DNA of 62,185 nt, filler included, from Nemertoderma westbladi (lineage: Eukaryota; Animalia; Xenacoelomorpha), in NCBI GenBank assembly GCA_032718475.1. It is 3 parts of 3 records of this genome, joined end to end, with 100 filler letters (N's around TTAATTAATTAA, not from the genome) between each part and the next. Parts side by side here need not be neighbours in the genome. Positions count along the whole stretch, not along the records: positions 23,783 to 42,745 come from JAUCBJ010003695.1; 2 more parts are not named here. One strand, 5' to 3'. This document shows positions 7,235-48,751 of this stretch, piece by piece; position 1 is the first letter of the stretch; every line of letters starts with the position of its first letter. A program made the translations under genes and the position numbers. The notes under the pieces were generated by a model, which had not been told where the DNA came from, made no database searches, and saw only the letters and a list, made by a program, of their open reading frames with translations.

Positions 7235-7892
7235 GTTTAATATACTGAAACATTTATCGACAGTAATATAGCAGCAGTATAGTGCACAAACCTACTAAAG
7301 TCGGGCCTCCCTAAAACCCGGTCCGGTCCCGGTCCCCGGTCCCGGTCCCCAAGACCCCTAAAACCCGGTCCGCCGGTCCCAATGATAGTCTACGGGGAAT
7401 TTATCCAAAACTAGGACCGGGTAAAACCCGGTCGGTCCTGACCCCTAAAAGTCGGTCCATAAAAGCCGGTCCATGCTTGGATTGGCCAATGAAAAAATAT
7501 TCCAGCCAATAAAACAAGAATAGTAATATTCCAGCCAATGAAACAAGGTTAAATAGTATTACTGCTGGCTGCTATACACAGATACAGCGGTGTTTACTTT
7601 ACTACAGGGATTATCTTTCTGTCTTTGTCTATACAGTAGGCCTATAGGTAGGCCTGCATCATATTCATCCGTGGGAATTATCACACGGCCTTATTTCCCA
7701 CTTTATATATCTAGCATTGTAGTAAGGCCCTACACTGTATACTATACACAGTACAGTAGTACACTACTGTATAACAAAATGAAATTACCATTGATTTCCG
7801 ATGTGACATGGCCTTGGATATGTGACCTCGGATTTTGTCACCACCACCCCATCCCCCACCGGCATCGCTAAAGCTTCATTACAATAGGTTCT

Positions 7893-9340: not shown

Positions 9341-12300
9341 TTAACTTTTGGGAAATATGGATAGGATCTTTATGAGAGAAAATAAGAGCACTGTCGTCGG
9401 CATATAAAATGAGTTTAAATCGGCCGCTCGTATTAAGATCGCTCGTATACCGCAGGGTCGTTCACACTCAGCGGTGCACCGCTGGCCCTGCGGTACCGCG
9501 CCGTGTACCGTTCCGTTTTGTTGTGAAAGGGCCTTGCTTGCCTTAAGGATCATGGAAAATTTCATAAAAATCGCTAGATGATCTCTATAAGTATATGGAG
9601 GTTTTAGCAATTACATTATAAATATATTACACCCCCCAATTAAATTCAGTCTCTATTTATGACGTACTTAATTGAGTATTATTTTTTTATAACAATAATT
9701 TTGTTGTCCTTGATTCGGTCTCCCTTCCAATTATCTTGTGCCTCCGGTATTTGTGTTCCATGTTAAATATTTACTGTATTTTATGGGCTATGTATGCCTG
9801 GATTAAATAATAATAATAATAATCTAAGTAATATGGAACCGATAGCAGTAATCACTTTAGGGTTATTTTTATCAGACTATTGCGCAGGCATGATAGGCAC
9901 TCTAATGTACTGTACAGTAGTAGGCCATGATGCAGATCGTATGGTGTACAAGTCGGACAGTCATCGCATGTACTGTTTCAGTTTCTATAGTATCCGGTAA
10001 TGGCTAGAAAGCCACATGCCTATACCTTGATAAAACTAAAAAATAACGCGGTTATTAATGTGTTCTGATCATCATACCTACCTCCTACACATATCAACTT
10101 AGCCAGGAAAGCAATTACTAACTAGCATAGTACCTACCACGTTCGATAAAAATGTCAATGGCAAAAATTTATTGTCATTCAGAAGGTAAAAAATCATTTG
10201 ATGAATATTATAAAATTTTAATGTGCCCAGATTCCCATTTGGTAAATAACTCATCGGCACGGATCATTAGACCCCATTCTGGAGGTCCAATATACGTCTT
10301 TGAAATGCCTCCAATAAGTTCAAGGAAAAAACTATGGCATCAGGGGATTCGTGTTGATGGATGGATAGGGGAACATACTGTATAACCCGTCCATAACTAG
10401 GCCTACTGTAGAGCAACCCATTTCCAATGCCACTTCTATCTGCCATCTTTAACATCTTAAAATCTTTAACAGCCGCAGCACTCCAAGGATCTTCGGCTAA
10501 GGGTTTGATAACCATTATATCCGAAAATGGAATATCACAGCAGATATGGTCCTTCAGTACTTTAGGACAGACATACGCACGCAGACATTTGGATAACGGC
10601 TCTAGAATAATTAACTTAACGAAAAAAAAAATTAACGAACTTGTACTTTCCTTTGAGTGATTAGTTGGCCTAAATATGATCTCCCACTCCACAGCGAAAT
10701 ATTCATCCGGTCTGGAGCTCAGTACACTCACCCGGCTGATGATAACCAGAAGTTTGAAACCTAGGTACCGGGTTCGAACCCCAATAGGGCCGGTTGATAT
10801 TTTTCGCTATGGAGAGCATTATCATATTGTCTTATTTACATTGTACTAGAATAATTAAAGATGTTCGCTAATGGCTTGCAATTCTGCCTCTCCCCAGAAG
10901 TTAAAGCCTGACACTTTCATTGCCTAAGTTGCTTCTGTTCTCATCAGAACCAAAGCTTTTCATTGGCTGTATATCACTATCCTTGTTTTATTGGCGGGAA
11001 TATTTCTTCATTGGCCAATCCAAGCATGGACCGGTTTTTATGGACCGACTTTTAGGGGTCAGGACCGACCGGGTTTTACCCGGTCCTAGTTTTGGATAAA
11101 TTCCCCGTAGACTATCATTGGGACCGGCGGACCGGGTTTTAGGGGTCTTGGGGACCGGGACCGGGGACCGGGACCGGACCGGGTTTTAGGGAGGCCCACT
11201 AAAGTCCTAGATATATACCATTCCTGTAAATATAGTTAGTTACATTAGGTTACAAATTTTATAAGACCTATTAGATTAATATATAGAAAGTTAGGCAAAC
11301 TGTCCATATTCAATGTGTGACAATATTCAATGTAGGTATTGTGGCAAATGTAGGCAAATTAAATATGAACAATTGCTCACCTGGAATCGACAGATCGATC
11401 GAACAAGCTGGTTGTAGCAAGTAACCCTATTAGAGTTTATCTCTATAGCCTAATCTAACAAACAGTTTGGTATTAGGCTACTGGCTTTCTAGGGAATTGG
11501 CCTACTATTGTGTACTATTCGTGTACCGCCGTACCGTACATGGCCTGGCGACATGATGGGTGGGAATGGCAGTGACATTGATGGATGATCGATGCATGTC
11601 ACATGTAGGGTCTGTCCTGTCCTGTCTCAGATTCTTCATGGTCCAATCCAAGTTTCCAGATAATGACTTTCGAGTTCCGTTGGCGTTGGTGTTGAGCACA
11701 AAGCGGGACCACACACACATACAGTACTGTGTGTACTGTATCAGACAATCAGACAATGCGTTTTATGCATTGGATTACTTTTAAATTTCCCTCCTTAACC
11801 GTTTGTGTTTCTACTCGGTTGCTAGGAAACCGTGGATCGTTTTGTATTGTACTGTGCAGGGAATTGAGAAAGCGGTACTTAACGCATCTACATCATATAC
11901 CCCCTTTTGCAGATGAATACCCACTTCTAGCACTCCAATAGCAATGATCCCCAATTATCTCAGTTAATTTAATTAATTACCGTATAAACAATGGACTTTC
12001 CACAAGTACGGTATACCAGTTATGGAATATCACATAATATAATCTGATTATCTAGTGCAAATCATAAAAGGTCATAGTAGAATGAAGTTATTTGTTTTTC
12101 AATGATACAATTTTATCACGTGTAAGTTCAGTGGATGGGAGTGGATTGTTGCTTGTCAGGAAGCGAAAACCAATAATTGTAATCACACTGTCGACCAATC
12201 AAAAGGCAGATGTTGAATTTTACTGAAAAGTAAATGAGTTAGTCAGTGATTGAGTGGACGTGGTGGGCGGGGTGAGGGGTGATGTTTTATTGATGAATTA

Positions 12301-12505: not shown

Positions 12506-14095
12506 CTAGGAACTAGTAACAATAATAGTATCATTATTATCTATAGCAAAGAAACTCAATGATCTGTAATCGTTGTCTATGAGAACCGGTTTATTAGTTC
12601 CCGCGCTCACGTAACTCAATAACTGCTTCTTCTTATCAACCCTGAAGACTTTCTCTATGATTATCTTGAGTTTCATTATTGTAGTTCCTGAGGGAAGTTT
12701 CTTAGAAACAACGCGAGTACCGGAATCAATAGAACCAACTACGATGTTAACGAGTAGAAGAGAATCTTTCAGTTTATTCGAGGTTTTCTTCAGTTGTCCG
12801 ATTTCCGGTTCGCCATATTTCTTCACGATCTCCCGGTAACGCGGGTGGAAGGCGAGAAACCGGTCCATTAGATCCGGTTCTGTTACATCCGAGGTGGCCT
12901 TAGCTTCGAACCATTGCGTCCCGTACTTTATCGAATACCAAACCTCGCTCTCCATTCGCTCTCTCGCTAGTATCGTAGTTTTATTCAGCGTTACCATCCC
13001 TCCGATTCGAGCGACTACCTCCATTCTAGCGTACTCTTCTTTATCTAAACTCAGAACCGGATTGGCAGTCAACGATAGTTCCACTAGTCGTGGAAGTTTA
13101 TTCAACTGGTTAATCGATTCCAGACTGGATATTTTGTTTTGTTTTAGACTGAGGAGGGAAAGTTTGGGGAAAAATTGGTCTTCTTTGGAATCCGGGAAGT
13201 AGACGGAAGGTATTCCGCAGCCGTTGCAATAGAGTTCAGTGAGTCCAGGCAGACGACCCAATTGGAGGACGAGATCCCAACTATCTATGGGGTTGAAGTC
13301 TAAAAGTAACATTTGTAGTTGAGCGAAACTATCCGATGGAAGGCCGGATAATTGTGCAGAGTTATGGCAGAAGGAAAGTTCTCTGAGATTCGCAAACATT
13401 ATAGAAACAAACGGTAAATCATGCCAGTTGATTAAAGTTTTATTTAAAGAAAGAGTTGAAACTTTATCGAAACTAGACGAAATCATACTGGCTTCGGTGT
13501 CATTCAGAAGGGCCGTCATTCGGCAGTTATTTAGGGAAAGAGTGGAAATATTTGGCATGAAGAAAGTCACGTTGGAAACAACCAGCCATGAGTTAATAAG
13601 ATTATTGGAAAGATCGAGTAGAGAAGCTTTTGGAAGTAAATGCTCATATAAAGGATTTACTGTGATGCTAGAAACTTTCATGTTGTATAAGTTGATACTG
13701 AAAGATTCACTGAAATTCGATTGTTTTTTATTGATAAACTTAGCCCCGATTACTATAATATCTCGCCCCCCGATTCCCTCTATAACTTCCTCGTTTACAG
13801 CCGATTCATCCAAACCGTATTTCTCTTTAACAGCGTCGATAAACTCGATTCCCGCATCGACGACGTGTGATCGGACGAATGAACCGCTGTTAGGCCGTCC
13901 GACCGAGAAGTACTCGCGACCCTTGTACGAGCCGCTGTGTCGACCACGGGACAAGTTGTCCCATTCCAGTCCCACCCACATCCCGGATGTCCCAACTACG
14001 GGACCGGTATAACGCACAGTCGCATACTCATTGTTGCAGCAAACACGCTGTCCATCCATCAGGGAACATTTCGTATTGGTACCGGTACTCATCAT
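12506..14095 (-). CDS. TBCE: Tubulin-specific chaperone E (CAP-Gly, LRR, ubiquitin-like domain), single exon
   Basis: 529-aa intact ORF. CAP-Gly ATVRYTGPV..WVGLEWDNLSRGRHSG..GSFVR, LRRs (LDLSNNLI, LSLKQNKI, LSLTANPV), ERMESEVWY..FHPRY..KYG, and C-terminal UBL KKLPSGTTIMKLK. Confidence 0.95.
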   Translation of the reverse strand: MMSTGTNTKCSLMDGQRVCCNNEYATVRYTGPVVGTSGMWVGLEWDNLSRGRHSGSYKGREYFSVGRPNSGSFVRSHVVDAGIEFIDAVKEKYGLDESAVNEEVIEGIGGRDIIVIGAKFINKKQSNFSESFSINLYNMKVSSITVNPLYEHLLPKASLLDLSNNLINSWLVVSNVTFFMPNISTLSLNNCRMTALLNDTEASMISSSFDKVSTLSLNKTLINWHDLPFVSIMFANLRELSFCHNSAQLSGLPSDSFAQLQMLLLDFNPIDSWDLVLQLGRLPGLTELYCNGCGIPSVYFPDSKEDQFFPKLSLLSLKQNKISSLESINQLNKLPRLVELSLTANPVLSLDKEEYARMEVVARIGGMVTLNKTTILARERMESEVWYSIKYGTQWFEAKATSDVTEPDLMDRFLAFHPRYREIVKKYGEPEIGQLKKTSNKLKDSLLLVNIVVGSIDSGTRVVSKKLPSGTTIMKLKIIIEKVFRVDKKKQLLSYVSAGTNKPVLIDNDYRSLSFFAIDNNDTIIVTSS

Positions 14096-14473
14096 TATTG
14101 CTGTATGGATTACAGGATTAGTGGTAGTGGTAGTTACTCTGTTACGCGGATGCTGTTCGTGAAGCCGTGATATAATATATCGATGTACTGAAGTAGTAGA
14201 GTAGGTAGACTAGGATCTACACACACTCATTATACAGGACAGCGCAACACAGTCTGCATGTGTATAGTCGTAGACTGTCAGCAGGTATTTGTAATTAAAG
14301 TTTGAAATTGGACATGTTTCATCTTGGACAAGAAATTTGCAAAAATGTTAGGCCTTTCTTAACTAACACTGTACACTGTAACATATCGGCAATTCAATCA
14401 TGATCAGACATTTACTAGTAAACTGTTGCTCGCAGCAGTATCGGTAGCTATTTATGTTATTATTCTGCATTTT

Positions 14474-14488: not shown

Positions 14489-14829
14489 ATAGGCCTACAC
14501 TGACTGATTGTATGAAAGACTTCTAGAACAACACTGAGTAGTATTTATTCATAGAACTAGAAAGCCAGCAAGCCAAGCAGGCTATAAGAAGACCGCAAGA
14601 CAACAAAACCGAAAAACTAAATCATAATTCCGTTTCTCTGGGTTAGTCCGAAGCGAAAAGATGAACAAATATTTAACCATATCCAATCTCGGCATCACTA
14701 TGAAGCAACCAGTTTAATATAAACATATAATATGCGCATGGCATGTATCCTAATAATAATATTCTACGAAACCAGAACAATAGGCGCTTTACTCTAAATA
14801 TTGCTTTGTAATCTGTACTGTTTATCCTG

Positions 14830-17800
14830 AACAACAACAGAGAACATAACAACAGAGAACAACAACAGAGAACATAACAACAGAGAACAACAACAGAGAA
14901 CATAACAACAGAGAACAACAACAGAGAACAACAACAGAGAACAACAACAGAGAACATAAACAGAGAACAACAACAGAGAACAACAACAGAGAATAACAAC
15001 AGAGAACATAAACAGAGAACAACAACAGAGAATAACAACAGAGAATAACAACAGAGAACAACAACAGAGAACAACAACAGAGAACATAACAACAGAGAAC
15101 AACAACAGAGAACAACAACAGAGAACATAACAACAGAGAACAACAACAGAGAACAACAACAGAGAACAACAACAGAGAACAACAACAGAGAACAACTACA
15201 GAGAACAACAACAGAGAATAACAACAGAGAACAATAACAGAGAACAACAACAGAGAACAACAACAGAGAACAACAACAGAGAACATAACAACAGAGAACA
15301 ACAACAGAGAACAACAACAGAGAACAACAACAGAGAACAACTACAGAGAATAACAACAGAGAACATAAACAGAGAACATAAACAGAGAACAACAACAGAG
15401 AACATAAACAGAGAACAACAACAGAGAATAACAACAGAGAACATAAACAGAGAACAACAACAGAGAACATAAACAGAGAACAACAACAGAGAATAACAAC
15501 AGAGAACATAACAACAGAGAACAACAACAGAGAACAACAACAGAGAACAACAACAGAGAACAACAACAGAGAATAACAACAGAGAACAACAACAGAGAAC
15601 AACAACAGAGAATAACAACAGAGAATAACAACAGAGAACAACAACAGAGAACAACAACAGAGAACATAAACAGAGAACAACAACAGAGAACAACAACAGA
15701 GAACAACAACAGAGAATAACAACAGAGAACATAAACAGAGAACAACAACAGAGAATAACAACAGAGAACAACAACAGAGAACAACAACAGAGAACATAAA
15801 CAGAGAACAACAACAGAGAACAACAACAGAGAACAACAACAGAGAATAACAACAGAGAACATAACAACAGAGAACAACAACAGAGAACAACAACAGAGAA
15901 CAACAACAGAGAACAACAACAGAGAATAACAACAGAGAACAACAACAGAGAACAACAACAGAGAATAACAACAGAGAATAACAACAGAGAACAACAACAG
16001 AGAACAACAACAGAGAACATAAACAGAGAACAACAACAGAGAACAACAACAGAGAACAACAACAGAGAATAACAACAGAGAACATAAACAGAGAACAACA
16101 ACAGAGAATAACAACAGAGAATAACAACAGAGAACAACAACAGAGAACATCAACAGAGAACAACAACAGAGAACAACAACAGAGAACAACAACAGAGAAC
16201 AACAACAGAGAACATCAACAGAGAACATCAACAGAGAACAACAACAGAGAACATCAACAGAGAACATAACAACAGAGAACAACAACAGAGAACATAACAA
16301 CAGAGAACAACAACATAGAATAACAACAGAGAACAACAACAGAGAACAACAACAGAGAACAACAACAGAGAACAACAACAGAGAATAACAACAGAGAACA
16401 TAAACAGAGAACAACAACAGAGAATAACAACAGAGAATAACAACAGAGAACAACAACAGAGAACAACTACAGAGAACAACAACAGAGAATAACAACAGAG
16501 AACAACTACAGAGAACAACAACAGAGAACAACAACAGAGAATAACAACAGAGAATAACAACAGAGAACAACAACAGAGAACAACAAAAGAGAACATAACA
16601 ACAGAGAACAACAACAGAGAATAACAACAGAGAACATAAACAGAGAACAACAACAGAGAACAACAACAGAGAACAACAACAGAGAATAACAACAGAGAAC
16701 ATAAACAGAGAACAACAACAGAGAATAACAACAGAGAATAACAACAGAGAACAACAACAGAGAACAACAACAGAGAACAACAACAGAGAATATAAACAGA
16801 GAACATAAACAGAGAACATAAACAGAGAACAACAACAGAGAACAACAACAGAGAATAACAACAGAGAACATAAACAGAGAACATAACAACAGAGAACAAC
16901 AACAGAGAACAATAACAGAGAACATAAACAGAGAACAACAACAGAGAACAACAACAGAGAACATCAACAGAGAACAACAACAGAGAACAACAACAGAGAA
17001 CAACAACAGAGAACAATAACAGAGAACATAAACAGAGAACATAAACAGAGAACAACAACAGAGAACAACAACAGAGAATAACAACAGAGAACATAAACAG
17101 AGAACATAAACAGAGAACAACAACAGAGAACAACAACAGAGAATAACAACAGAGAACATAAACAGAGAACATAACAACAGAGAACAACAACATAGAATAA
17201 CAACAGAGAACAACAACAGAGAACAACAACAGAGAACAACAACAGAGAACAACAACAGAGAATAACAACAGAGAACATAAACAGAGAACAACAACAGAGA
17301 ATAACAACAGAGAATAACAACAGAGAACAACAACAGAGAACAACTACAGAGAACAACAACAGAGAATAACAACAGAGAACAACTACAGAGAACAACAACA
17401 GAGAACAACAACAGAGAATAACAACAGAGAATAACAACAGAGAACAACAACAGAGAACAACAACAGAGAACATAACAACAGAGAACAACAACAGAGAATA
17501 ACAACAGAGAACATAAACAGAGAACAACAACAGAGAACAACAACAGAGAACAACAACAGAGAATAACAACAGAGAACATAAACAGAGAACAACAACAGAG
17601 AATAACAACAGAGAATAACAACAGAGAACAACAACAGAGAACAACAACAGAGAACATAACAACAGAGAACAACAACAGAGAATAACAACAGAGAACAACA
17701 ACAGAGAACATAAACAGAGAACAACAACAGAGAACAACAACAGAGAACATCAACAGAGAACAACAACAGAGAACAACAACAGAGAACAACAACAGAGAAC

Positions 17801-20800
17801 AATAACAGAGAACATAAACAGAGAACATAAACAGAGAACAACAACAGAGAACAACAACAGAGAACAACAACAGAGAACATAAACAGAGAACATAAACAGA
17901 GAATAACAACAGAGAACAACAACAGAGAATAACAACAGAGAACATAAACAGAGAACAACAACAGAGAATAACAACAGAGAATAACAACAGAGAACAACAA
18001 CAGAGAACAACAACAGAGAACAACAACAGAGAATAACAACAGAGAATAACAACAGAGAACAACAACAGAGAACAACTACAGAGAACAACAACAGAGAATA
18101 ACAACAGAGAACAACTACAGAGAACAACAACAGAGAACAACAACAGAGAATAACAACAGAGAATAACAACAGAGAACAACAACAGAGAACAACAACAGAG
18201 AACATAACAACAGAGAACAACAACAGAGAATAACAACAGAGAACAACAACAGAGAACAACAACAGAGAATAACAACAGAGAACATCAACAGAGAATAACA
18301 ACAGAGAACATAAACAGAGAACAACAACAGAGAACAACAACAGAGAACAACAACAGAGAATAACAACAGAGAACATAAACAGAGAACAACAACAGAGAAT
18401 AACAACAGAGAATAACAACAGAGAACAACAACAGAGAACAACAACAGAGAACATAACAACAGAGAACAACAACAGAGAATAACAACAGAGAACATAAACA
18501 GAGAACAACAACAGAGAACAACAACAGAGAACAACAACAGAGAATAACAACAGAGAACATAAACAGAGAACAACAACAGAGAATAACAACAGAGAATAAC
18601 AACAGAGAACAACAACAGAGAACAACAACAGAGAACATAACAACAGAGAACAACAACAGAGAATAACAACAGAGAACATAAACAGAGAACATAAACAGAG
18701 AACAACAACAGAGAATAACAACAGAGAACAACAACAGAGAACAACAACAGAGAACATAAACAGAGAACATAAACAGAGAACATAAACAGAGAACATAAAC
18801 AGAGAACAACAACAGAGAACAACAACAGAGAACATAAAAAGAGAACAACAACAGAGAACATAAACAGAGAACAACAACAGAGAATAACAACAGAGAACAT
18901 AAACAGAGAACAACAACAGAGAATAACAACAGAGAATAACAACAGAGAACAACAACAGAGAACAACAACAGAGAACAACAACAGAGAACAACAACAGAGA
19001 ATAACAACAGAGAACAACAACAGAGAACAACAACAGAGAACATAACAACAGAGAACAACAACAGAGAACAATAACAGAGAACAACTACAGAGAACAACAA
19101 CAGAGAACAACAACAGAGAATAACAACAGAGAACATAAACAGAGAACATAAACAGAGAACAACAACAGAGAACATAAACAGAGAACATAAACAGAGAATA
19201 ACAACAGAGAACATAAACAGAGAACAACAACAGAGAATAACAACAGAGAATAACAACAGAGAACAACAACAGAGAACAACAACAGAGAACATAAACAGAG
19301 AACATAAACAGAGAACAACAACAGAGAACATAAACAGAGAATAACAACAGAGAACATAAACAGAGAATAACAACAGAGAACATAAACAGAGAACATAAAC
19401 AGAGAATAACAACAGAGAACATAAACAGAGAATAACAACAGAGAACATAAACAGAGAACATAAACAGAGAACAACAACAGAGAACATAAACAGAGAATAA
19501 CAACAGAGAACATAAACAGAGAATAACAACAGAGAACATAAACAGAGAACATAAACAGAGAATAACAACAGAGAACATAAACAGAGAATAACAACAGAGA
19601 ACATAAACAGAGAACAACAACAGAGAATAACAACAGAGAACATAAACAGAGAACAACAACAGAGAATAACAACAGAGAATAACAACAGAGAACAACAACA
19701 GAGAACAACAACAGAGAACATAAACAGAGAACATAAACAGAGAACAACAACAGAGAACATAAACAGAGAACATAAACAGAGAACAACAACAGAGAACATA
19801 AACAGAGAACATAAACAGAGAATAACAACAGAGAACATAAACAGAGAACAACAACAGAGAACAACAACAGAGAACAACAACAGAGAACAACAACAGAGAA
19901 CAACAACAGAGAACAACAACAGAGAATAACAACAGAGAACAACAACAGAGAACAACAACAGAGAACATAACAACAGAGAACAACAACAGAGAACAATAAC
20001 AGAGAACAACTACAGAGAACAACAACAGAGAACAACAACAGAGAATAACAACAGAGAACATAAACAGAGAACATAAACAGAGAACAACAACAGAGAACAT
20101 AAACAGAGAACATAAACAGAGAACAACAACAGAGAACATAAACAGAGAACAACAACAGAGAATAACAACAGAGAACATAAACAGAGAACAACAACAGAGA
20201 ATAACAACAGAGAACATAAACAGAGAACAACAACAGAGAATAACAACAGAGAATAACAACAGAGAACAACAACAGAGAACAACAACAGAGAACATAAACA
20301 GAGAACATAAACAGAGAACAACAACAGAGAACATAAACAGAGAACATAAACAGAGAACAACAACAGAGAACATAAACAGAGAACATAAACAGAGAATAAC
20401 AACAGAGAACATAAACAGAGAACAACAACAGAGAACAACAACAGAGAACAACAACAGAGAACAACAACAGAGAACAACAACAGAGAACAACAACAGAGAA
20501 TAACAACAGAGAACAACAACAGAGAACAACAACAGAGAACATAACAACAGAGAACAACAACAGAGAACAATAACAGAGAACAACTACAGAGAACAACAAC
20601 AGAGAACAACAACAGAGAATAACAACAGAGAACATAAACAGAGAACATAAACAGAGAACAACAACAGAGAACATAAACAGAGAACATAAACAGAGAACAA
20701 CAACAGAGAACATAAACAGAGAACAACAACAGAGAATAACAACAGAGAACAACAACAGAGAACAACAACAGAGAACAACAACAGAGAACAACAACAGAGA

Positions 20801-21750
20801 ACAACTACAGAGAACAACAACAGAGAATAACAACAGAGAACAACAACAGAGAACAACAACAGAGAACAACAACAGAGAACAACAACAGAGAATAACAACA
20901 GAGAACATAAACAGAGAACAACAACAGAGAATAACAACAGAGAATAACAACAGAGAACAACAACAGAGAACAACAACAGAGAACATAACAACAGAGAACA
21001 ACAACAGAGAATAACAACAGAGAACATAAACAGAGAACAACAACAGAGAACAACAACAGAGAACAACAACAGAGAACAACAACAGAGAACAACAACAGAG
21101 AACAACAACAGAGAACAACAACAGAGAATAACAACAGAGAACATAAACAGAGAACAACAACAGAGAATAACAACAGAGAATAACAACAGAGAACAACAAC
21201 AGAGAACAACAACAGAGAACATAACAACAGAGAACAACAACAGAGAACAATAACAGAGAACAACTACAGAGAACAACAACAGAGAACAACTACAGAGAAC
21301 AACAACAGAGAATAACAACAGAGAACAACAACAGAGAACAACAACAGAGAACATAAACAGAGAACATCAACAGAGAATAACAACAGAGAACAACAACAGA
21401 GAATAACAACAGAGAACATAAACAGAGAACATAAACAGAGAACAACAACAGAGAACATAAACAGAGAACATAAACAGAGAACAACAACAGAGAACATAAA
21501 CAGAGAACAACAACAGAGAATAACAACAGAGAACAACAACAGAGAACAACAACAGAGAACAACAACAGAGAACAACAACAGAGAATAACAACAGAGAACA
21601 ACAACAGAGAACAACTACAGAGAACAACAACAGAGAATAACAACAGAGAACATAAACAGAGAACAACAACAGAGAACATAAACAGAGAACAACAACAGAG
21701 AACAACAACAGAGAACAATAACAGAGAACAACAACAGAACAACAACAACA
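14830..21750. repeat. 6.9-kb minisatellite/satellite array, 13-bp unit AACAACAACAGAG with a few recurring variants
   Basis: Roughly 530 units. Variants include aataacaacagag, aacataaacagag, aacataacaacagag (15 bp), aacaactacagag, aacatcaacagag and aacaataacagag. Confidence 0.99.
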
Positions 21751-23682
21751 TATTTATACGGTCCCACAATTGAATCGGTCCCAATATTATATAAGCGCTC
21801 CCATAATTGAATAGTTTTGTTGAATTGCTCTTTCAATCAGTGTATGTCACATAATTAACCTTTCCAATTATCTCATTATTTCCATATATCTAAAGGCTTT
21901 ATGACCCTAATCTATGCAATAAAAAAAAAGTCGGTTTCCTTTACTGTATGTAATAAAAAAAATCCTAAATTTTTTTCTAAACTTTTTTCCACATCATGGG
22001 GTTGAGCTGCGTCGATTGATATAACTTTCCTTGACGGACGAGCTATAGTTTCGGAGGAGTTTACATGATATACATACATACATACATAGATACATACATA
22101 ATAATTTGACAGTAAGAAGTCCTAACGTTCTTCAAATACTGTAGGCCTACATACCCTTTTAAAACGTGGACCCCAAAAGTTATAATCGTTCTAAAGAACA
22201 GATACATTAATTTTTCAATGCCGGTTTAACTTTTTCACATTATATTTATGATTGCTATCATTATGTGCGAGTTTGAGAATTTCAACCCTTAATCTTTTTT
22301 AATTAAAACCAATAATTCGTTTTTTCGAAAAAGCATTAATTATCCATCAATGGGGGGAAACTTGACACCTAGTGTGGGAGACTTGAACCCCCATTTCAAT
22401 TTTTGTAAATTCATACAAAAATCCATTAGAGGTGAAATAATTAATTACATGTTCAACATGTCTATTTTATAGTAGAGCAAAGAAAAAGCAAAAAATGCGA
22501 TTATTACTGTAATTTGTCATAATTATTATTCCAAATTTTATACCAATTTAGGTGGTCGTTCACATGGTTCCCCTAACAAGGGCGTAATAATTAATAGTTC
22601 ATTAAAACCGCAATAAAATTTAACGCGGTAAAGCACTTTTTCATAATAAATATCATGTATAATTTTCAATCCAGGCGCATCCTGGTGTAATGGTTCTCTA
22701 CGGGGGTGTATCTCAAGGTAGGCATTGGCCGGTTCAAGTCTCCCTGGGTTTATATAAAAAGTCCATGTGGAGAAACTTGACGCCCGAGTTCAAGTCTCCT
22801 CACATGGGCCTTTTATATATTAATTACTGTAATATAATTGCGGCTAATATATGGCAGGATAGTGCAATAAATAGTCAAAACATGTGGGTAATTACAATGA
22901 ACAAGTAACCAGACATATAAATAAGGGTGCAAATTTTCATTCGTTCTAAATCGTAAAAATTTACCTTTGAACCCAGAAAACGTTTATTGGCAATAAAACA
23001 AAAAATAACCAAAAGGTAATAAAAACATTGTTGTGCGGGTGTAGCCTACATGTAATTTACACATTATTGTGTGGTATTGTTAAATAATTTACAATAGTTT
23101 TTGAGTTCTTCAAAAAAATCAAGTCTCCCCTAAAGTCAAGTCTCCTTCACTCACTCTAGGTACAGAGAGCGTATGGTAAAGTATAAACTATCCTGAACGT
23201 AGCTACAATAAATAATTATAGGCCTACTATACTGTACATTAATTACATTTCCTAGAGCAGATCGCGAGTTAAAGTGGTTTCGAATGGGAAGTTTTATTGC
23301 ATTGAGTACAGTATATGTTTAGTGGGAAGTAACATGATAACTTTTATACCAGTTTTATAATTATTTATAATAATAATTATAGTTTATAATCATATAAATC
23401 GACTCAATGAGATTTCGCATACTCATAATACAGTAATTCCCAAATTCAACAGCAATAATTAATTGTGTGCAGGGGAATCCAGTTTAAAGGTTATGGGCCT
23501 AATATTCAACCAACAACAAACGGGGACGCCTCTAAGAGTTCATTGGTCGCCAGATGTTTCTGCGGCGAGACTTTGAAGTTGCAGGGTGCATTGCCGAGGT
23601 CGTCTGGTTCATCACGTTTTATAATGAGCGAGTAACAGAGAGTTGACAAATTCGGTGTTGTCAGTTGAACATTTAAATCGTA

Positions 23683-23782
23683 NNNNNNNNNNNNNNNNNN
23701 NNNNNNNNNNNNNNNNNNNNNNNNNNTTAATTAATTAANNNNNNNNNNNNNNNNNNNNNNNNNNNNNNNNNNNNNNNNNNNN
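23683..23782. other. Artificial contig linker
   Basis: 44 N + TTAATTAATTAA (stops in all six frames) + 44 N. Confidence 0.97.
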
Positions 23783-24905
23783 AAACCGATCCAATGACAC
23801 TGAGTCCCCGACTTATATATCCTGGTTTTGTCTTCGTCACCAAGGGTTTAACATTGTCATTTGGGCTATTCTCTATATTGGGGCTATAATTGGCACGTTT
23901 GGTGACATTTTTGGCGAAATTGTCAATGTCAATTTTTGATTCAATTAAGTTGGCTTTTGGAGTTGGTGTAAATTTCAACCCCAATTTAAGAAGAGTTTTT
24001 TCAGCAGGATTTAAAGTATAGCTGGACAAGTTTAGAATATCAACTCTATTATTGTCATTCGATTCTAGTCATTGATTGCTTGTAGCTGGTTTTGCGCGTG
24101 TAGGGCCCGAATTAGAGTCCGTTCTGGAATTAGGTGGTGCAGGCCAACGAAATCCATTTCCTGATGTTGTTGGTCTTCCCCCGTTAGATTGTTGACGAAA
24201 CAATGTCGTCCGACTTACTGATCGGGTGTTTCTTGTACTGTTATAGTTGTACTCACGGCGTGGCTGGCGTCCTCGCTCTTGGTACTGTTGTCTTTGATTA
24301 GAGACGTCTCGATCATATGGTTGGGGTGGTTGGCGTCCTCGCTCTTGGTACTGTTGTCTTTGATTAGAGACGTCTCGATCATATGGTTGGGGTGGTTGGC
24401 GTCCTCGCTCTTGATGCTGTTTTCTAGTATAAGTGACATCTCCACCGTATGGTTGGGGTGGCTGGCGTCCTCGCTCTTGTTGCTGTTGTCTTTGATTAGA
24501 GACATCTCGACCTTTATTGATGTTATCACTATGCGGTTGGCGTACTCGTTCCAGGGGTTGATATCTTTGCTTTGAAATATCTCGAGATCCGCCCTTAGGC
24601 TTGTTGCTTGACATTTCTTGGTTAGTAGGTATTTCAAGGACGTCATCATCAAGTGGTGCAAATTGATTTGAAACTTCAATACTATTTTGTTGGTTCTTTG
24701 TAGGTTGGCTACGATGGGGTTGATGATTGTTATTGTTATGTTTCCGGTTGCGGATAAAGATGAATTCTGGAGCGTTGTCAACGGTGCTGGTTGAATTTGT
24801 TGTCGATGATTTCACAAGGTTTAACATATGTTTGTCACCTTTGAAAAACTCGATTTTTTTGTTCCATCTAGCGAGATTTTCTTGTTCTCTTATCTCCCCC
24901 ACCTC
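23783..24905 (-). mobile_element. Inverted 5' part of a Penelope-like element: Q/R/N-rich ORF1, in-frame TGA, start of pol
   Basis: After the TGA (24071-24069) the frame continues LESNDNNRVDILNLSSYTLNPAEKTLLKLGLKFTPTP, the typical PLE N-terminal 'NLS..L..E..LL.KGL.F.PTP' motif. ORF1 contains ~4 copies of a 66-bp/22-aa repeat (DRDVSNQRQQYQERGRQPPQPY). Confidence 0.85.
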
Positions 24906-26433
24906 GATTAATTCCCCCACCTCACGATTATCGGAACTACTTGAACACATTTTACAACCCATAGTTAGAGAAACTCACAGTTACATTAAGGATACCCATC
25001 ACTTTATCGAAAAACTACCTGAAAGAATTGGAAAAAACGATATGATGGTTAGTTTTGATGTGACGTCACTCTACACTTCAATTGAACATTCTGTCGGTCT
25101 CGAAGCAGTGTCAAATTGGGTGGACAGCAAACGAGAGTTACTTCCAGACCGCTTTACCAAAGAATTTATTATCGGTGGCCTAGAAATTGTTCTGAAAAAC
25201 AATTTTTTTACTTTTACTTCAGCTGTAACAGGTGCTAAATCGTATCACCATCAGAAGAAGGGCACCGCCATGGGTACCAAATGTGCAGTCCCCTATGCTA
25301 ACCTAACACTTGCCGAATTAGAAGATAAAATTGAGAAAATCATAATGAATAAATACGGATCTCAGACAGCGGAATATTTTCGAGATAACTGGGGCCGTTT
25401 CCTGGATGATTGCTTCACTATATGGCCGCTAGATGGCATTATAACAATCGAAGAACTCAAAGATATCCTGAACTCAATTACTCCCTGTCTGAAATTCACA
25501 ATCGAATACAGCTCAGATAAGTTACCGTTTCTAGATGTTTTAGTAATGAATAAAAACGGTTTATTAACACTCGATATATATCACAAACCAACTGACGCTA
25601 GAAACTATGTTGATTATAGATCATCCCACAATAAGAATACTCTACGGAACATTCCATACTGTCTAGCCAGACGAATTGGAATGATTGTTGACGACAAGGT
25701 GATAAGAGAAACCCGATTTTCAGAGCTAAAAGAAGACCTGAGAAAAAGACACTACCCAGTTGATCTGATTAATCGCGCGATTGTAGAGATTCGGAAAACG
25801 TCCTCAACTGAACTTCGAATCAAAAAGAAAAAGAACAGCCATGACATTGTCCCTTTCATTACTACATATAATCCAAATGTTATTATTCCGTTTCATAACA
25901 TTATAAAACCGGCCTACAACTTACTATCTGTGGGGAATGGGAGAATCGGGAACAATTTGAAAAATAAAAGACTAATCTGTGCGTTTAGACAACCTCCTTC
26001 ACTAAAAAGCATTTTGGGCCGCCAAAAGAAAGTGATTACACCTGGCATTACTAAGTGCAAACACTCACTTTGTGACATTTGCGACATTTTAGTCGAGGGA
26101 GATAGCCTGACTATGCAGAATGGGGAAACTTTTAAAATTAAACACGAACTTTCCTGCAGAAGCACCAATGTTGTATACGTCATGTATTGTCAGAACTGTC
26201 CCGAAACTTATATTGGTCAGACCATGGACTTCAGACACCGAATTAATCTCCACAGAAACCAAATACTCAATGAACGTTATAGACATTTAAGGTGTAGCAA
26301 ACACTTTCACAACTGCGGGGAAAACCAATTTAAAGTGGCCCCATTCTTCTGTTGTCGACATGAAAACTTATTAGAAGGCTACGAACAACATTTCATTGAT
26401 AAATACCAACCTTCTTTGAACAGCCAACAATAG
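24906..26433 (+). mobile_element. Penelope-like retroelement RT plus GIY-YIG endonuclease (Neptune-type Cys linker), 5'-truncated
   Basis: SFDVTSLYTSI, QKKGTAMGTKCAVPYANL, RFLDDCF, LPFLDV, YHKPT, CKHSLCDIC, CRSTNVVYVMYCQNC..YIGQT..RINLH. The frame is open to the stop at 26433. Confidence 0.95.
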
Positions 26434-26532
26434 AACTAAGAACCAATTGTTGTAAAGTGGGCCCAGTTTTTGTCGATCTCATAAACTATATAAACCTTAT
26501 TGAGTTTCCAATAATGTTACTTTATTATTTTT

Positions 26533-26586
26533 AAACCAGACGTTCTGAAGATTTTGAAATGCATTAACGTTTTTAATATCTGGTTT
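26533..26586 (+). ncRNA. Putative minimal type I hammerhead ribozyme motif in the PLE 3' region
   Basis: acgtt-CTGAAGA-tttt-GAAA-tgca-TT-aacgt, extended by aaaccaga/tctggttt pairing. Stem II is essentially absent. Confidence 0.5.
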
Positions 26587-26719
26587 ACTTATTTATTTGT
26601 TTTTAATTACTTTTAATAATTTAATGTTTAATGATCATAATTATATTGCCATGTAAATTTTGAATTTTTTAACTATTTAAACCGGAATATAGCCCATTCT
26701 AACTCATTTAAACCTTTAT

Positions 26720-26798
26720 TGTGGGGCGAGCCACGAAGTTGGCGGAGCCTTAGCGAATTGACACTGTTAGGGGGTGGGTCAATTTATGCAAATAGTTG

Positions 26799-26860
<62 letters not shown>

Positions 26861-27994
26861 GTCGTTACGATTTTGACATGCTAATAACTTTGTCGGATTT
26901 AAAGCTGCCAAGTTGAAAATTTGTAGGTATCAATATGAGCAAAAGTTGAGATTTTTGAGAGACTTTCAGACACCATCAGTGCAATGGTCTCCCGCTAGAG
27001 GGCCACATGTCTAAACATTAAATGGCCACCCATTTCTTTGCTTTTAATCCGTTTATGCTGAAACTTGGGAAGTATGTACTAGACCATTAGCTGTAAATTT
27101 CAAAGGAGGCTAATCTGTCTGCAGTTCTCCAGTCTGCCGCTAGAGGGCGAAATGTCCCGAATGTGAAATTATTCTTCCATTTAGTTGTTTATGATCTGAT
27201 TACGCTGAAACTTGTCATATATGTACTAGATGACATCCTGAGTCTTTGTGTGGATTGTAATCGGTCCGAAGTTTTCCAGTCTCCCGCTAGAGGGCCACAT
27301 GTCTAAACATTAAATGGCCACCCATTTCTTTGCTTTTAATCCGTTTAAGCTGAAACTTGGGAAGTATGTACTAGACCATTAGCTGTAAATTTCAAAGGAG
27401 GCTAATCTGTCTGCAGTTCTCCAGTCTGCCGCTAGAGGGCGAAATGTCCCGAATGTGAAATTATTCTTCCATTTAGTTGTTTATGATCTGATTACGCTGA
27501 AACTTGTCATATATGTACTAGAAGACATCCTAAGTCTTTGTGTGGACAGTAATCGGTCCGGAGTTTTCGAGTCTGCCGCTAGAGGGCGAAATGTAGGAAA
27601 GTGATAACCTTCGCGAATTCCTTGATCTTAATCTATTTAAGCTGAATTTTGGAATATACAGTACTGGTATGTACTAGACCACATGCCTCGTCTTTGTGAG
27701 GAAGGTGATCGATCCGTAGTTCTTTAATATGCCGCTAGAGGGCTAAATGTATGAAAGTGAAAACCTTCCAACATTTCGTTATTTATGATCCGTCAATCGG
27801 AAACTTGGTAGATATGTAATAGACCATAGGATGTGGCTTTGTAGGGAAACTAATCCTTCCTTCTTCAGTTACCCAGTCTCCCGCTAGAGGGTTAACGTTT
27901 TCCGGGAAAATCTTCTCCTATGTTTTTATAATCCTTTCGAGTTGATACTTAGCATTAACTCATTTCACGTGCTGCGCGAAGGCCCCACTTCGTG
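26720..27994 (+). mobile_element. Non-autonomous element (Helentron/Crypton-like, unresolved) with (GTC)n microsatellite and ~146-bp tandem array
   Basis: 5' end tgtggggcgagccacgaag and 3' end tgctgcgcgaaggccccac are shared with 55039-56655. Seven units anchored on CCGCTAGAGGG form a 292-bp dimer. Confidence 0.65.
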
Positions 27995-43705: not shown

Positions 43706-45710
43706 CTGTCCAATCTGATCAGGTTTACACGCCTTCTGTTCAATACTGGCCTACAAACAAATAAAACTGACAGAAATAAGTAAGCTCCAAAAGAAACAAG
43801 GGGTGTACAGTCCCTAATCTCTTAAACAGCCTACCGGTATACAACAATCAAATCGAATAATACTAGTGTACTTATATGGCAGTACCGGTTCTAGCGGTTG
43901 GGCCTACTGACCTACAGATGTACCGGTTGACCGGTACTTTCAACTTTATTGCTTACTGCAATAAAGAAGCTATATCCTTTAATGTTCCCGCTTTCAGACC
44001 TTTGGCAGTTTAACCCGCCAAATTAAGATGTCTTCTAGATATTAAATCGCTTTTTAGCCTATGACAAGTATTTGATTCACTACACTAGTCGAAACCAATC
44101 CGTGCGCGACCATTCACCCGCTGGATATTCCCGGGAGATTGGGTTCGACGGTTTAATTTTGTTGCTATGTAAGCCTAATGTATTATTCGACTGACAGTAT
44201 TATATAATCTCTGACAATATTATTTACCTTCGGGAATATTAACAGTTCCTTTAGGACGTGGCGCTTTATCTACATAAACAGAGTTATGACTTAAACTACT
44301 CACAACGATATGGCTTAATTATAATTCACATATATGGCGCATTCTTTAGGAATGCTTCTTTAACAGACTCACTCATACACAATGCTGCACAATACTGCAC
44401 ACTAATCTGCCGATCTTCACTGATTTTAGTCACATATAAAAGAAACACAGACTGACTCATGTAGGGTCTATCAAATAACATTAGATTCACTTCAAACCAC
44501 TTTAACATAAGTCACAATCGTTTATCTGTAACCTTTCTCTCTTACCTTCGGTATATCAAGAATATTGGGTGTCGGGGTTATTTCTCGTTATTCCAATATA
44601 ATAATTCATCAACAAATATAATGAATAACCGACAACAAATAGCAGTATGCAGTATAAAAGTATGCACAGCGTTACACAGTATGCAGTGTATGCAGTACTG
44701 CAGTATGCAGTGATTACGAAATTGCAGAGTGTTTGTTTCGTCAGTTAAAGGATATATGTCCTTGTAATTAAACCTACTAGTGTTGAGCTAAAAAGCATAA
44801 AACATAAAACACTAAAAGCCGTTCTTTCGTGGCTTTGAAAAACTCGTGACTACTGCTCTATACGAGTATACCAACCACTCTTATTCCACGAAGCTCCCGT
44901 TCAACACAGAGAAAGAGCAGTGAGATAGGAAATTTTCAGTTCAGTACTCTGTGATTGGTCAAAATCAAGGCTAACTCAAAATTCTATTGGGAGATACAAA
45001 AACAAGGCTATGACGCAACTATCACAGCAAATAGACAAATCAGCGTACAGCAAATCAGCCAATAAGCTGGTAACTTGCACTATTTTTAGCTGTAGATCAC
45101 TTTGAGAGTATTCTTAGCGACTGGGGGGGAACTGGCCAACAAGGCAAACGAATCAGTTATCCCACAAAAGCTTTTACAGATTTGTATCAAATAATGTTGT
45201 CAAAGGCAATTTAATTTGACACAAATCAATCAGATAGGGGACGCGCGATGAATAGATTGTACTACAGTAGGGGTTGCCTTGGTATGTTGCCATGGTAGCC
45301 TTCAGCTTTGTTATCATGTAAGATTGGAAACCTTAGGTTTAGATCTTACGCGCCAGCATTCCCTCAATCGCACATAGACCAACTACAACCATTAATTACC
45401 ACACATACGAGCCCATATGTTAAATTAATCCTCAACCATTTCTATACTAGATACTGTAGTTTTATGTACCATACGACCATTGTCAAATCCCCTGAGAAAT
45501 TACAATAAACATCTGGTTTACAATAGATTATTCTTCTTTCACAACTCCATTCTAGCCTCCCTCTATAATAGCCCCCATTCACCGCATTCCCATTCATTCT
45601 CTAATTTTTATTTTTAAAAGTTTTATTTATTTTCATAAAAGTTTTATTTATTTAAAATATTGTAAAATCATTCAGCGAAAATTCATAATATCAATTGACT
45701 TTGCTATATA

Positions 45711-46793
45711 ATGCATAGAGATGAAAGATGTTTGGTTTGTAATAAAGAAATGAGACAAGACAATCTATCTCGTCATATGGAAAGACATAGAAAGGATAAA
45801 CTAATGGATCCATTCCCAAAGAAATTTAAAAAATCCGAAGATATTTTTAGTGAAGATGAAAAGAAAAAGAGAGTTGAGCGTGATATATTAAATATAAAAC
45901 AGACAACGGAAAATAAATTTCATAAAGTTATGAATATTTTGAAAGGGATACAAAAACAGTTACCCCTAAAAAATGATGAAAATTTGAGTGAGGAAGATGA
46001 AGAAGAAGAGGACTATGAGATGGAGAATGAAAATAGTGAGGGTCAGGATGAAGTTGAAGATAGTGAGATTGAGAACGAAGTGAGTGAAGGTCAGGAAGTG
46101 GAAGAAGAAAGTGAAGGTCAGGAAGAGGGTGAAGAAAGCGAAGGTCAGGAAGAGAATGAAGAAAGTGAAGAACAGGAAGAGGATGAAGAAAGTGAAGAAC
46201 AAGAAGAGGATGACGAAAGTGAAGGCCAGAAAGAGGATGAAGAAAGTGAAGGTCAGGAAGAGGACGAAGAAAGTGAAGGTCAGGAAAGTGAAGAAGATGA
46301 TGAAAATGATAATAATAAGGAAATATTGAGACAATTACTTGGAAATAAGAATAAATTACGGAAAATTATTAAACATTTGAAGGAAAAAGAAAAAAATAAA
46401 GAGGTGACATTGACCCAAGTTCTAGGAAGTAAAATTAAATTACATAAATTTATTAAACATTTAGAAGAGAATGATGAAAATAAAGAAGAGATATTGAGAC
46501 AAATATTAGGAAACAACAATCAAATGCGGAAATTTATTAAACAAATGGAAGAAAATGAGGAAAATAGAGAAGAGATATTAAGACAGGTTCTGGGAAATAA
46601 AAGTAAATTACTGAAAATTAATGAACAATTGAATAAGATTAAGAAACAGTTGGTTAATGAGGAAGATGAAAGTAAAGAAAATCAACCAGCTTTTACTTAT
46701 TTTCGAAGACCTATGATAGAAAAAACTCTCGTACAGTATATGCCCGCGCAGGAGGACACTATTGACATTTGTTTGTTTGAGTTCCTTTCATAA
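45711..46793 (+). CDS. Intronless protein: N-terminal C2H2 finger, Glu-rich repeat tract, ~25-aa helical repeats; function unknown
   Basis: CLVCNKEMRQDNLSRHMERH, (EESEGQEED)n, and four KEILRQ.LG.K.KL.K.I..LEENE-type units. The frame is kept open in the second copy. Confidence 0.7.
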   Translation: MHRDERCLVCNKEMRQDNLSRHMERHRKDKLMDPFPKKFKKSEDIFSEDEKKKRVERDILNIKQTTENKFHKVMNILKGIQKQLPLKNDENLSEEDEEEEDYEMENENSEGQDEVEDSEIENEVSEGQEVEEESEGQEEGEESEGQEENEESEEQEEDEESEEQEEDDESEGQKEDEESEGQEEDEESEGQESEEDDENDNNKEILRQLLGNKNKLRKIIKHLKEKEKNKEVTLTQVLGSKIKLHKFIKHLEENDENKEEILRQILGNNNQMRKFIKQMEENEENREEILRQVLGNKSKLLKINEQLNKIKKQLVNEEDESKENQPAFTYFRRPMIEKTLVQYMPAQEDTIDICLFEFLS

Positions 46794-47181: not shown

Positions 47182-48044
47182 GGGTTCGAACCTATTGCTG
47201 ACCGAGGCCTATTGCTGACCGAACGAAAACTGTCCTGGTTCATGCAGGGATCGAACCCATGACATGCGGGAGATGTGAATTCAACGCAACCACTACACCA
47301 AGGTGAAACAGTAACCTTCGAATTTGCTCGTTGAAGTTCGCATTTGTATGACTTTCATTTAAGACCTGACACAAACTATGCCTCACTGAGGCACTGAGAC
47401 ACTGAGGCATAGACTATGCCTCCCTGAGGCACTGAGGCATAGACTATGACTCACTGAGGCATAGACTATGCCTCACTGAAGCACTGAGGCACAGACTATG
47501 CCTCACTGAGGCATAGACTATGCCTTACTGAGGCACTGAGGCATAGACTATGCCTCACTGAGGCATAGTCTATGTCTCAGTGCCTCAGTGAGGCATAGTC
47601 TATGCCTCAGTGAGGCATAGTCTGTGCCTCAGTGCCTCAGTGAGGCATAGTCTATGCCTCAGTGAGTCATAGTCTATGCCTCAGTGCCTCAGTGAGGCAT
47701 AGTCTATGCCTCAGTGCCTCAGTGAGGCATAGTCTATGCCTCAGTGAGGCATAGTCTATGCCTCAGTGCCTCAGTGAGGCATAGTCTATGCCTCAGTGAG
47801 ACATAGTCTGTGCCTCAGTGAGGCATAGTCTATGCCTCAGTGAGGCATAGTCTGTGTCAGGTCTTAAATGAAAGTCTTACAAATGCGAACGTCAACGAAC
47901 AAATTCGAAGGTTACTGTTACACCTTGGTGTAGTGGTTGCGTTGAATTCACATCTCCCGCATGTCATGGGTTCGATCCCTGCATGAACCAGGACAGTTTT
48001 CGTTCGGTCAGCAATAGGCCTCGGTCAGCAATAGGTTCGAACCC
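47182..48044. mobile_element. Palindromic MITE: ~190-bp TIRs containing tRNA-like A/B boxes and an internal array that flips orientation
   Basis: 47182-47372 mirrors 47853-48044. Internal cctcactgaggcatagactatg units invert near 47568. Confidence 0.85.
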
Positions 48045-48053
48045 CTTAGGTTC

Positions 48054-48751
48054 GTCACCTCTTTATTTTCTTCATTTTCCTTCAAATGTTTAATAATTTT
48101 CCGCAATTTATTCTTATTTCCAAGTAATTGTCTCAATATTTCCTTATTATTATCATTTTCATCATCTTCTTCACTTTCCTGACCTTCACTTTCTTCGTCC
48201 TCTTCCTGACCTTCACTTTCGTCATCCTCTTTCTGACCTTCACTTTCGTCATCCTCTTCCTGTTCTTCACTTTCTTCATCCTCTTCCTGTTCTTCACTTT
48301 CTTCATTCTCTTCCTGAACTTCGCTTTCTTCACCCTCTTCCTGACCTTCACTTTCTTCGTCCTCTTCCTGACCTTCACTCACTTCGTTCTCAACCTCACT
48401 TTCTTCAACTTCATCCTGACCCTCACTATTTTCATTCTCCATCTCATCGTCCTCTTCTTCTTCACTTTCCTCACTCAAATTTTCATCATTTTCTAGGGGT
48501 AACTGTTTTTGTATCCTTTTCAAAATATTCATAACTTTATGAAATTTATTTTCCGTTGTCTGTTTTATCTTTAATATATCACGCTCAACTCTCTTTTTCT
48601 TTTCATCTTCACTAAAAATATCTTCGGATTTTTTAAATTTCTTTTGTAATGGATCCATTACTTTATCCTTTCTATGTCTTTCCATATGACAAGATAGATT
48701 GTCTTGTCTCATTTCTTTATTACAAACCAAACATCTTTCATCTCTATGCAT
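48054..48751 (-). pseudogene. 3'-truncated inverted copy of the 45711 gene
   Basis: Near-identical peptide up to NKEVT, then runs into the MITE TIR. Confidence 0.8.

Follow-up and report, generated by a model that had tools for sequence, protein, structure and literature searches.

We found that ORF1 and pol of a Penelope-like element (PLE) of Nemertoderma westbladi lie in one frame, separated by a single UGA that is followed by CUAG. We propose, at a probability of roughly two in three judged from sequence, that programmed readthrough of this stop has replaced the -1 frameshift that likely operates at the ORF1-pol junction of its clade. The element lies in a window, by which we mean the whole stretch of 62,185 nucleotides that was analysed; all positions count along it. 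Readthrough is the most probable reading because the stop, shared among copies, sits in the ORF1-to-pol linker where relatives carry a likely frameshift and switch frame. Since the clade keeps a gag-pol-like ORF1/pol layout, mostly by way of a likely -1 frameshift, we regard the leaky stop as a functional equivalent rather than as an oddity. The case is built on one small family. The features on which the analysis draws are the following.

23683-23782, no strand: assembly gap of two N runs flanking a 12-nt linker; the remainder of the pol N-terminus, DKG motif included, lies hidden in it
23784-24068, minus strand: pol N-terminus, 95 codons with no Met, a 12-codon leader followed by the NLS motif at 24032
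24025-24056, minus strand: predicted hairpin, a candidate readthrough stimulator, beginning 12 nt after UGA
24065-24074, minus strand: CAA-UGA-CUAG, the lone in-frame stop, with adenines at -1 and -2 and a context prone to readthrough
24065-24256, minus strand: possible in-frame intron of 192 nt that would remove the stop (GCC/GTGAGT to CTAG/)
24072-24896, minus strand: 3' part of ORF1, 275 codons, the end of a conserved helical domain and then an R/Q/N/P/S-rich low-complexity tail
24149-24155, minus strand: G GAU UUC, standing 41 codons ahead of the NLS motif and in the productive -1 phase
24260-24510, minus strand: in-frame tandem repeat of the ORF1 tail, 3.8 copies of a unit of 66 bp (22 codons)
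24896-24908, no strand: inversion junction at which the inverted 5' piece (minus) meets the forward RT-EN piece
24908-26433, plus strand: intact 3' part of pol with 506 open codons, comprising RT, thumb, a CX4CxxC linker zinc finger and GIY-YIG with CCHH residues
26536-26583, plus strand: minimal hammerhead-like motif in the 3' repeat, found by pattern match, its helices read by hand

On the minus strand the junction reads AAT CAA TGA CTA GAA TCG, with TGA at 24071-24069. The sequence-only reading had described a single stop here, between a low-complexity ORF1 and the PLE pol N-terminus, with open frames on both sides and no in-frame Met before NLSSYTL, and the translation bore all of this out. 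Upstream of UGA the frame is open over 24974-24072 (301 codons), of which 275, from 24896, are ORF1 proper and the remainder is antisense RT past the inversion junction; downstream it is open for 95 codons, up to the assembly gap at 23782. The stop lies 12 codons from NLSSYTL, and no in-frame Met occurs in the 95 open pol codons, which include the conserved NLS and GLKF motifs. Two out-of-frame ATGs are found at the junction, one in the A-TGA that overlaps the stop (5 codons) and one in the +1 frame (8 codons). Frameshifting at the stop and AUGA reinitiation were both rejected for this site, as they run into stops within 1-8 codons.

The claim that UGA-CUAG is a leaky context agrees with the cited readthrough literature: it is a documented readthrough motif, at about 1.5-17% in mammalian reporters (PMC9841425), and viral readthrough sites combine UGA-CUA with adenines at -1 and -2 and 3' structures (PMC3159437). 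Among 6,612 stop triplets on both strands of the window, with the satellite removed, TGACTAG occurs 3 times (the junction site counted) and TGACTA 19 times; in related loci TGACTAG accounts for 7 of 18,096 stop triplets. TGACTA does not terminate ORF1 in any of the 46 relatives with an out-of-frame ORF1. These chance figures overstate the surprise because the site was picked from a very large scan for a matching motif.

Folding of the RNA downstream of the stop, which had been suggested as a check, yielded a modest predicted hairpin. The 172-nt stretch that was folded has a z-score of -2.66, and 3 of 200 shuffles were equally stable. Folds as low were obtained for 2 of 43 homologous stretches of relatives and for 0 of 19 RT-EN tiles, while 1 of 9 ORF1 tiles folds lower than the junction stretch.

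Under the proposed mechanism, most ribosomes would stop at UGA-CUAG and release ORF1, and a small share, perhaps roughly 1-15%, would read through UGA and produce an ORF1-RT-endonuclease fusion. The 3' hairpin would aid readthrough, and ORF1 may have a structural or RNA-chaperone role. The element would descend from a -1 frameshifting ancestor, in which readthrough took over as the switch that sets the ratio of the products. A protease to cut the fusion is not evident in the window element.

The frame upstream of the stop had been taken for a genuine ORF1, and a profile of the ORF1 motif from 22 relatives confirmed that it is the ORF1 of this clade. Its first residues rank best of 50,150 six-frame windows (17.1, the next 10.8), on a scale where the profile members, self included, score between -4 and 40. 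A Trp is placed 15 residues before the motif Trp, as in relatives (hand translation of the 30-letter loose end of a contig). A whole-ORF1 HMM did not detect the truncated ORF1 of the window, with scores within the shuffled range. The 66-bp repeat of the tail has one unit fewer in one contig, with the frame preserved.

The ORF1 domain family comprises 1,293 representatives at E<=0.001. The best 150 of these measure 128-553 aa, and none is fused to RT. The domain model is all-helical (predicted structure, pLDDT 91), with no Foldseek match at E<=0.001, and Pfam gave nothing above the curated cut-off in six ORF1s. A search of longer proteins with the ORF1 alignment returned two, of 393 and 417 aa. 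The corresponding RT-EN search gave nine matches of 897-1547 aa, with no natural ORF1-pol fusion of 1,200 aa or more among them, which is weak evidence. From its composition, the basic R/Q/N-rich tail may bind RNA.

The host element is a Neptune/Nematis-type EN+ PLE, although its relatives in the trees carry no clade names. It has the RT followed by a C-terminal GIY-YIG endonuclease that characterizes canonical EN+ elements, as well as their N-terminal GxKF/Y feature, present as a GLKF motif near 23981-23970 (minus). The endonuclease translation reads VYVMYCQNC...YIG with two His later (feature compared with PMC8557442), and the CX4CxxC zinc finger between RT and EN fits the CX2-5CxxC linker of Neptune/Nematis. 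Pfam detected GIY-YIG (E 6e-8) and, below the curated cut-off, RVT_1 (E 3e-4) in the 3' part of pol; 175 homologs of RT-EN were found at E<=1e-20, and the pol N-terminus matches the pol N-terminal HMM of relatives (E 1e-15). Its last few codons before the gap are unreliable, as contigs from three runs have two extra bases at 23798, and about 150 pol codons fall in the gap, an estimate based on P0002 spacing. Canonical EN+ elements have a single ORF in the description of Craig et al. 2021 (PMC8557442). In this the window element and most of its relatives differ, having two ORFs; single-ORF forms occur further out among the relatives (P0121, P0125, P0129).

Contigs from other samples depart from the window at 24896 and at 24908, where they go on with additional ORF1 and RT sequence. 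Because of this divergence, we interpret the window copy as a 5'-truncated insertion with an inverted 5' piece. The inversion may have originated in a manner resembling twin priming.

The predicted ribozyme motif in the 3' repeat has a hammerhead-like core, CTGAAGA-N4-GAAA, at 26545-26559, with a palindromic 4-nt helix III. Hammerhead motifs have been described in PLE repeats (PMC4209133). Rfam gave no match at E<=1 in 23500-27000, the hammerhead-like motif included. In two runs the contig depth over the motif (26510-26600) was about 900-1,050, compared with 120-240 over the RT; contig depth is not copy number, and contigs drop rare variants. The depth peak suggests that many short non-autonomous derivatives of the 3' repeat exist.

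To compare copies we used contigs (Logan) of four DNA runs of one organism, representing three samples and three studies. Twelve pieces aligned to 23900-24240, and four of these cover the stop (X1 and X2, which are one sample, and two from X3); the run X4 has no coverage of the site and lies outside this count. A check proposed beforehand was whether TGA-CTAG is fixed across copies. TGA-CTA was present in 4/4 covering contigs (two samples, two studies), with no indel across the junction; the final G did not hold throughout, being present in 3/4. One of the samples could be the source of the window itself, in which case one independent sample is left for the 4/4 count. A sense codon at the stop, named beforehand as the observation that would count against readthrough, was found in 0/4 contigs at 80% identity or better, and neither was an indel.

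The contig that has lost the G of CUAG is 94% identical, with five differences in 89 nt, and has its own inversion point (24109 to 25759). On account of these differences and of its own inversion point, we consider it a separate, older insertion, and at least two separate insertions carry the stop. Several sibling contigs are damaged elsewhere, which weighs against the readthrough reading. A 1-nt deletion at 23996 in the pol N-terminus affects the X1 contig and one of the X3 contigs. In all four runs, the sole contig type bearing the ORF1 5' part has one extra nucleotide at 24853, by which ORF1 would terminate prematurely, while the window state at this position preserves the conserved motif spacing. 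One contig bearing the ORF1 5' part has a nonsense change at 24584. RT contigs differ from the window copy by about 0.3%, and the differences among copies are mostly non-synonymous. An intact full-length master copy was not seen among the contigs of the four runs, and no close family from another species was found. The family is probably small, with few copies.

To place the junction among relatives we collected 92 loci (L001-L092), consisting of the best 80 of 453 metagenome matches by similarity to the first sequence of the alignment and of all 12 genome-bin matches; 75 of the 92 include the pol N-terminus. To be scorable, a locus needed a pol-frame stop no more than 105 codons from the NLS motif and 100 or more codons of upstream DNA; this left 33 loci, a number that overstates independence since some are closely related. 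An ORF1 of at least 100 codons overlapping pol in a -1 arrangement was found in 28 of the 33. The other five comprise one miscalled as +1, two in frame and two without a long ORF1. A canonical slippery heptamer stands in the productive phase in 25/33 loci, compared with 4 and 5 in the other phases and with a mean of 5.6 (maximum 13 in 1,000 draws) in random pol windows; with G permitted at the last place, the count rises to 30/33. The heptamers are U UUU UUA/G, A AAA AAC or U UUA AAC. The proteins carry a matching mark, with Phe-Leu in the last 50 residues of 70 of 89 full-tail ORF1 proteins and in the preceding 50 residues of two. In 21 of these 70, Phe-Leu lies exactly 10 residues before the ORF1 end (P0132-P0281). 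The ORF1 stop clusters about 30 nt past the heptamer (30-39 nt in 10/26 -1 loci, e.g. L035 and L043). A -1 frameshift at the ORF1-pol junction is thus likely in most relatives. The gag-pol-like strategy proposed for the window element held in part: the layout is kept clade-wide (28/33 overlaps, 25/33 heptamers), while readthrough itself is predicted from sequence, and RNA binding by ORF1, which was part of the proposal, from amino-acid composition.

In the window element itself, a canonical heptamer is absent from all three phases over the stretch that begins 150 nt ahead of the stop and runs to the NLS motif. A relaxed heptamer definition was uninformative, being satisfied in 699/761 control tiles. 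The G GAU UUC at 24149-24155 recalls G GAU UUU, a working slippery site in some plant viruses. The +1 frame from G GAU UUC ends at the TAG inside TGACTAG. GGA-TTT occurs in 5/761 control tiles, although the motif was chosen after being seen. We speculate that it could be a vestige of an ancestral slippery site.

RNA folds 3' of the heptamers of relatives (38 loci) have lower energies than controls (Wilcoxon P = 0.0004), but their z-scores do not differ from those of controls (P = 0.13), and a general hairpin downstream of the heptamers was therefore dropped. As a separate observation, GGCC starts exactly 6 nt after the heptamer in 7/38 loci (L010, L012, L020, L033, L051, L062 and L081), which span distant lineages; it may be an RNA signal or an ORF1 Gly codon.

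RT trees were built with FastTree (106 rows) and with IQ-TREE in quick mode (46 rows), neither with an outgroup root. Most rows that had no scored ORF1 are absent from the smaller tree, as are L090-L092, which are short or on long branches, and L067, L070, L072, L076 and L079. In both trees the window element falls inside a fully supported -1 clade (64/106 and 31/46 rows, respectively), on a long branch (0.78-0.95) with no close sister. Four loci outside this clade (L044, L062, L068 and L089) also have the -1 overlap and a heptamer, and -1 frameshifting is therefore the parsimonious ancestral state. In a separate (sister) clade, 9/30 long-leader loci have AUGA, a pol ATG overlapping the ORF1 UGA (L049, L054, L059, L060, L063, L073, L076, L077 and L079), and L067 has TAATG. 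The AUGA overlap is likely a third junction strategy, coupled termination-reinitiation.

Three individual loci were reassessed. L006, scored as +1, is an artefact of the longest-frame rule and has a heptamer and a 166-codon -1 frame. L032, considered as an in-frame case, has NN just before the stop and groups with -1 elements. L055 was rejected as support, belonging to the other (reinitiation-type) clade and having its own Met 26 codons into pol. At L055:1833-1840, 610 open codons are followed by an in-frame TGA-CTA-T and then by pol, and from this arrangement L055 is a possible second, independent readthrough case. Among same-clade relatives there was no second clean in-frame stop. Viral contigs gave 115 pattern matches, none related, and a search of five genome bins gave 15 additional matches, mostly known loci again, with no new scorable junction.

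Four other explanations were weighed against readthrough. The family could be a disabled non-autonomous lineage, in which an indel put ORF1 into the pol frame and a nonsense change (e.g. CGA to TGA) created the stop. Its defective RNA would be copied in trans by an intact sibling, CUAG would be accidental and its TAG would be the old ORF1 stop. The lesions of sibling contigs at 23996, 24853 and 24584 and the mostly non-synonymous differences between copies speak for this, and G GAU UUC, with its +1 frame ending in TGACTAG, fits an ancestral frameshift layout. We nevertheless consider it unlikely, as the nonsense change would have had to fall, out of more than 1,000 codons, in a short linker directly before CTAG. 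Moreover, at least two separate insertions carry the stop, none of the four covering contigs has a sense codon or an indel there, and the window copy remains open on both sides and over 506 RT-EN codons, with RT contigs about 0.3% different. It is distinctly unlikely that splicing removes the stop, with a minor mRNA fusing the frames and the genomic RNA retaining the intron. A phase-1 donor, GCC/GTGAGT at 24256 or AAG/GTGACA at 24838, would be joined to the AG of CTAG; the in-frame donor and acceptor phases agree, the canonical donor hexamer scores 4.4 on a rough matrix, and spliceosomal introns are known in PLEs (PMC4209133; PMC8557442, Fig. 1 legend). However, the acceptor is weak, pyrimidines making up only 42% of the 19 nt that precede it; chance would give about 0.4 GTRAGT hexamers in 825 nt (hand estimate), and GTAAGT at 24218, the better donor, does not have the right phase. 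In addition, relatives solve the same problem translationally, and none of the DNA contigs has lost the segment, although copies that retained the intron would mask that.

Separate production of pol appears improbable, whether ribosomes reinitiated or used a non-AUG codon past the stop or transcription began at an internal junction promoter as in Tca2 (PMC2194720). The AUGA of the sister clade gives it a precedent and the window site also reads A-UGA, but here the AUG opens another frame than that of pol and leads to a stop after five codons, with no indel in 4/4 contigs, and pol lacks an in-frame Met over its 95 codons, conserved motifs included. Finally, UGA could be decoded as selenocysteine with inefficient passage into pol, as proposed for clam and spider Naiad elements, which are PLEs with in-frame UGAs and SECIS elements (PMC8557442). 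A pattern search for SECIS, advised by the sequence-only reading, revealed none at 26401-26800, and Rfam, searched over 23500-27000, had no match at E<=1. The linker that holds the UGA is unconserved, the UGA does not replace a conserved Cys, and every zinc-finger Cys of the window pol has a sense codon. We regard selenocysteine as very improbable.

More speculatively, and rather less likely than not, the ORF1-pol junction of EN+ PLEs could be viewed as an interchangeable recoding switch, of which the window family would have converted the frameshift site into UGA-CUAG readthrough. The variants of this switch would be a -1 frameshift in most lineages, AUGA reinitiation in one clade, fusion in some and UGA-CUAG in the window family. 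The conversion could have proceeded by an indel that fused the frames of the ancestral frameshift layout, after which a new UGA restored a regulated junction; these steps would be recorded in the G GAU UUC remnant and in the former ORF1 stop of the +1 frame, the UAG within CUAG. As to origin, the G GAU UUC trace would fit a disabled lineage equally well and does not decide between the two.

Retroviruses fix the ratio of Gag to Gag-Pol by frameshifting or readthrough, and PLEs are the sister group of telomerase. If the view of an interchangeable switch is correct, the element would be the first of the telomerase-related EN+ retroelements to be regulated by readthrough and would come with a traceable swap from frameshift to readthrough. 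If readthrough holds, the retroviral type of choice would have arisen independently in PLEs, the EN+ members of which are usually called single-ORF. An exchange of one mechanism for the other at this junction would mean that what is conserved is a low pol-to-ORF1 ratio and not the slippery site. The junction would also offer a short testable cassette for readthrough in an invertebrate-type context. For annotation, it warns that an in-frame stop at an ORF1-pol junction need not mean a dead copy.

Among known systems, the closest are the Neptune/Nematis-type EN+ elements; canonical EN+ elements are described as single-ORF (PMC8557442), whereas the window element has ORF1 and pol in frame across one UGA-CUAG. 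According to the Fig. 1 legend of that paper, a frameshift with a pseudoknot can set ORF1 apart, and frameshifting in this clade may already have been known to its authors. The -1 relatives (L001-L092) share with the window element the ORF1 family, a junction that in most lies 12-55 codons before NLS, and a usually Met-less pol start; they overlap ORF1 and pol at a heptamer, while the window family has no overlap and a stop in a leaky context. As in MuLV (gag-UAG-pol) and in alphaviruses and tobraviruses (UGA-CUA), the polymerase lies in frame past one stop, the UGA-CUA context is shared with this readthrough group, and the predicted hairpin would correspond to the 3' structure near the stop of the viral sites (PMC3159437). 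MuLV uses UAG and a pseudoknot, and the viral signals are tested (PMC3159437), whereas the window element is telomerase-related and non-viral and its signal is predicted. Tca2, an LTR retrotransposon of Candida albicans, likewise has two in-frame ORFs split by UGA, but belongs to another retroelement class, and its gag-UGA-pol junction gave no readthrough in an S. cerevisiae reporter (PMC2194720). Tca2 is both the nearest retrotransposon precedent and a caution. The Naiads, for which selenocysteine UGAs are reported, share the in-frame UGA in a PLE, but their endonuclease is N-terminal, they have 3-4 UGAs, most of which fall at conserved cysteines, and SECIS elements are present (PMC8557442). 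In the window element the endonuclease is C-terminal, the one UGA belongs to a linker, and the search for SECIS gave none.

Literature searches returned no report of stop-codon readthrough in a PLE; the Terminon paper (PMC5850863), Arkhipova 2006 and Repbase entries lay outside their scope and could bear on it. The word readthrough has 0 occurrences in the available text of PMC8557442 and the supplement file searched. Readthrough terms led to no PLE case in the available portions of PMC3846280, PMC6431247, PMC5408684, PMC5009743 (first 300,000 characters), PMC12602865 and bioRxiv 10.64898/2026.07.22.740005.

Several other features of the window were observed. A satellite of about 7 kb at 14829-21750 consists of 529 copies of a 13-bp unit with an extreme AT skew, which gives rise to long spurious open frames. 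An uninterrupted ORF of 567 codons at 12509-14209 (minus), with similar short repeats flanking it at 7317-7350 and 11150-11183, presumably resembles tubulin-folding cofactor E (CAP-Gly, leucine-rich repeats and a ubiquitin-like end). Two similar acidic Glu-rich ORFs, at 45699-46790 (plus) and 48011-48763 (minus), form an inverted duplication, facing one another across a palindromic 22/52-bp repeat array (47392-47853). From translation, a C2H2 zinc-finger array in 84-bp units extends over 60772-62185, with one stop at about 61699. A LINE at 57554-59647 has its AP endonuclease on the minus strand and the 3' part of its RT on the plus strand, and thus, judging from translation, is apparently inverted too.
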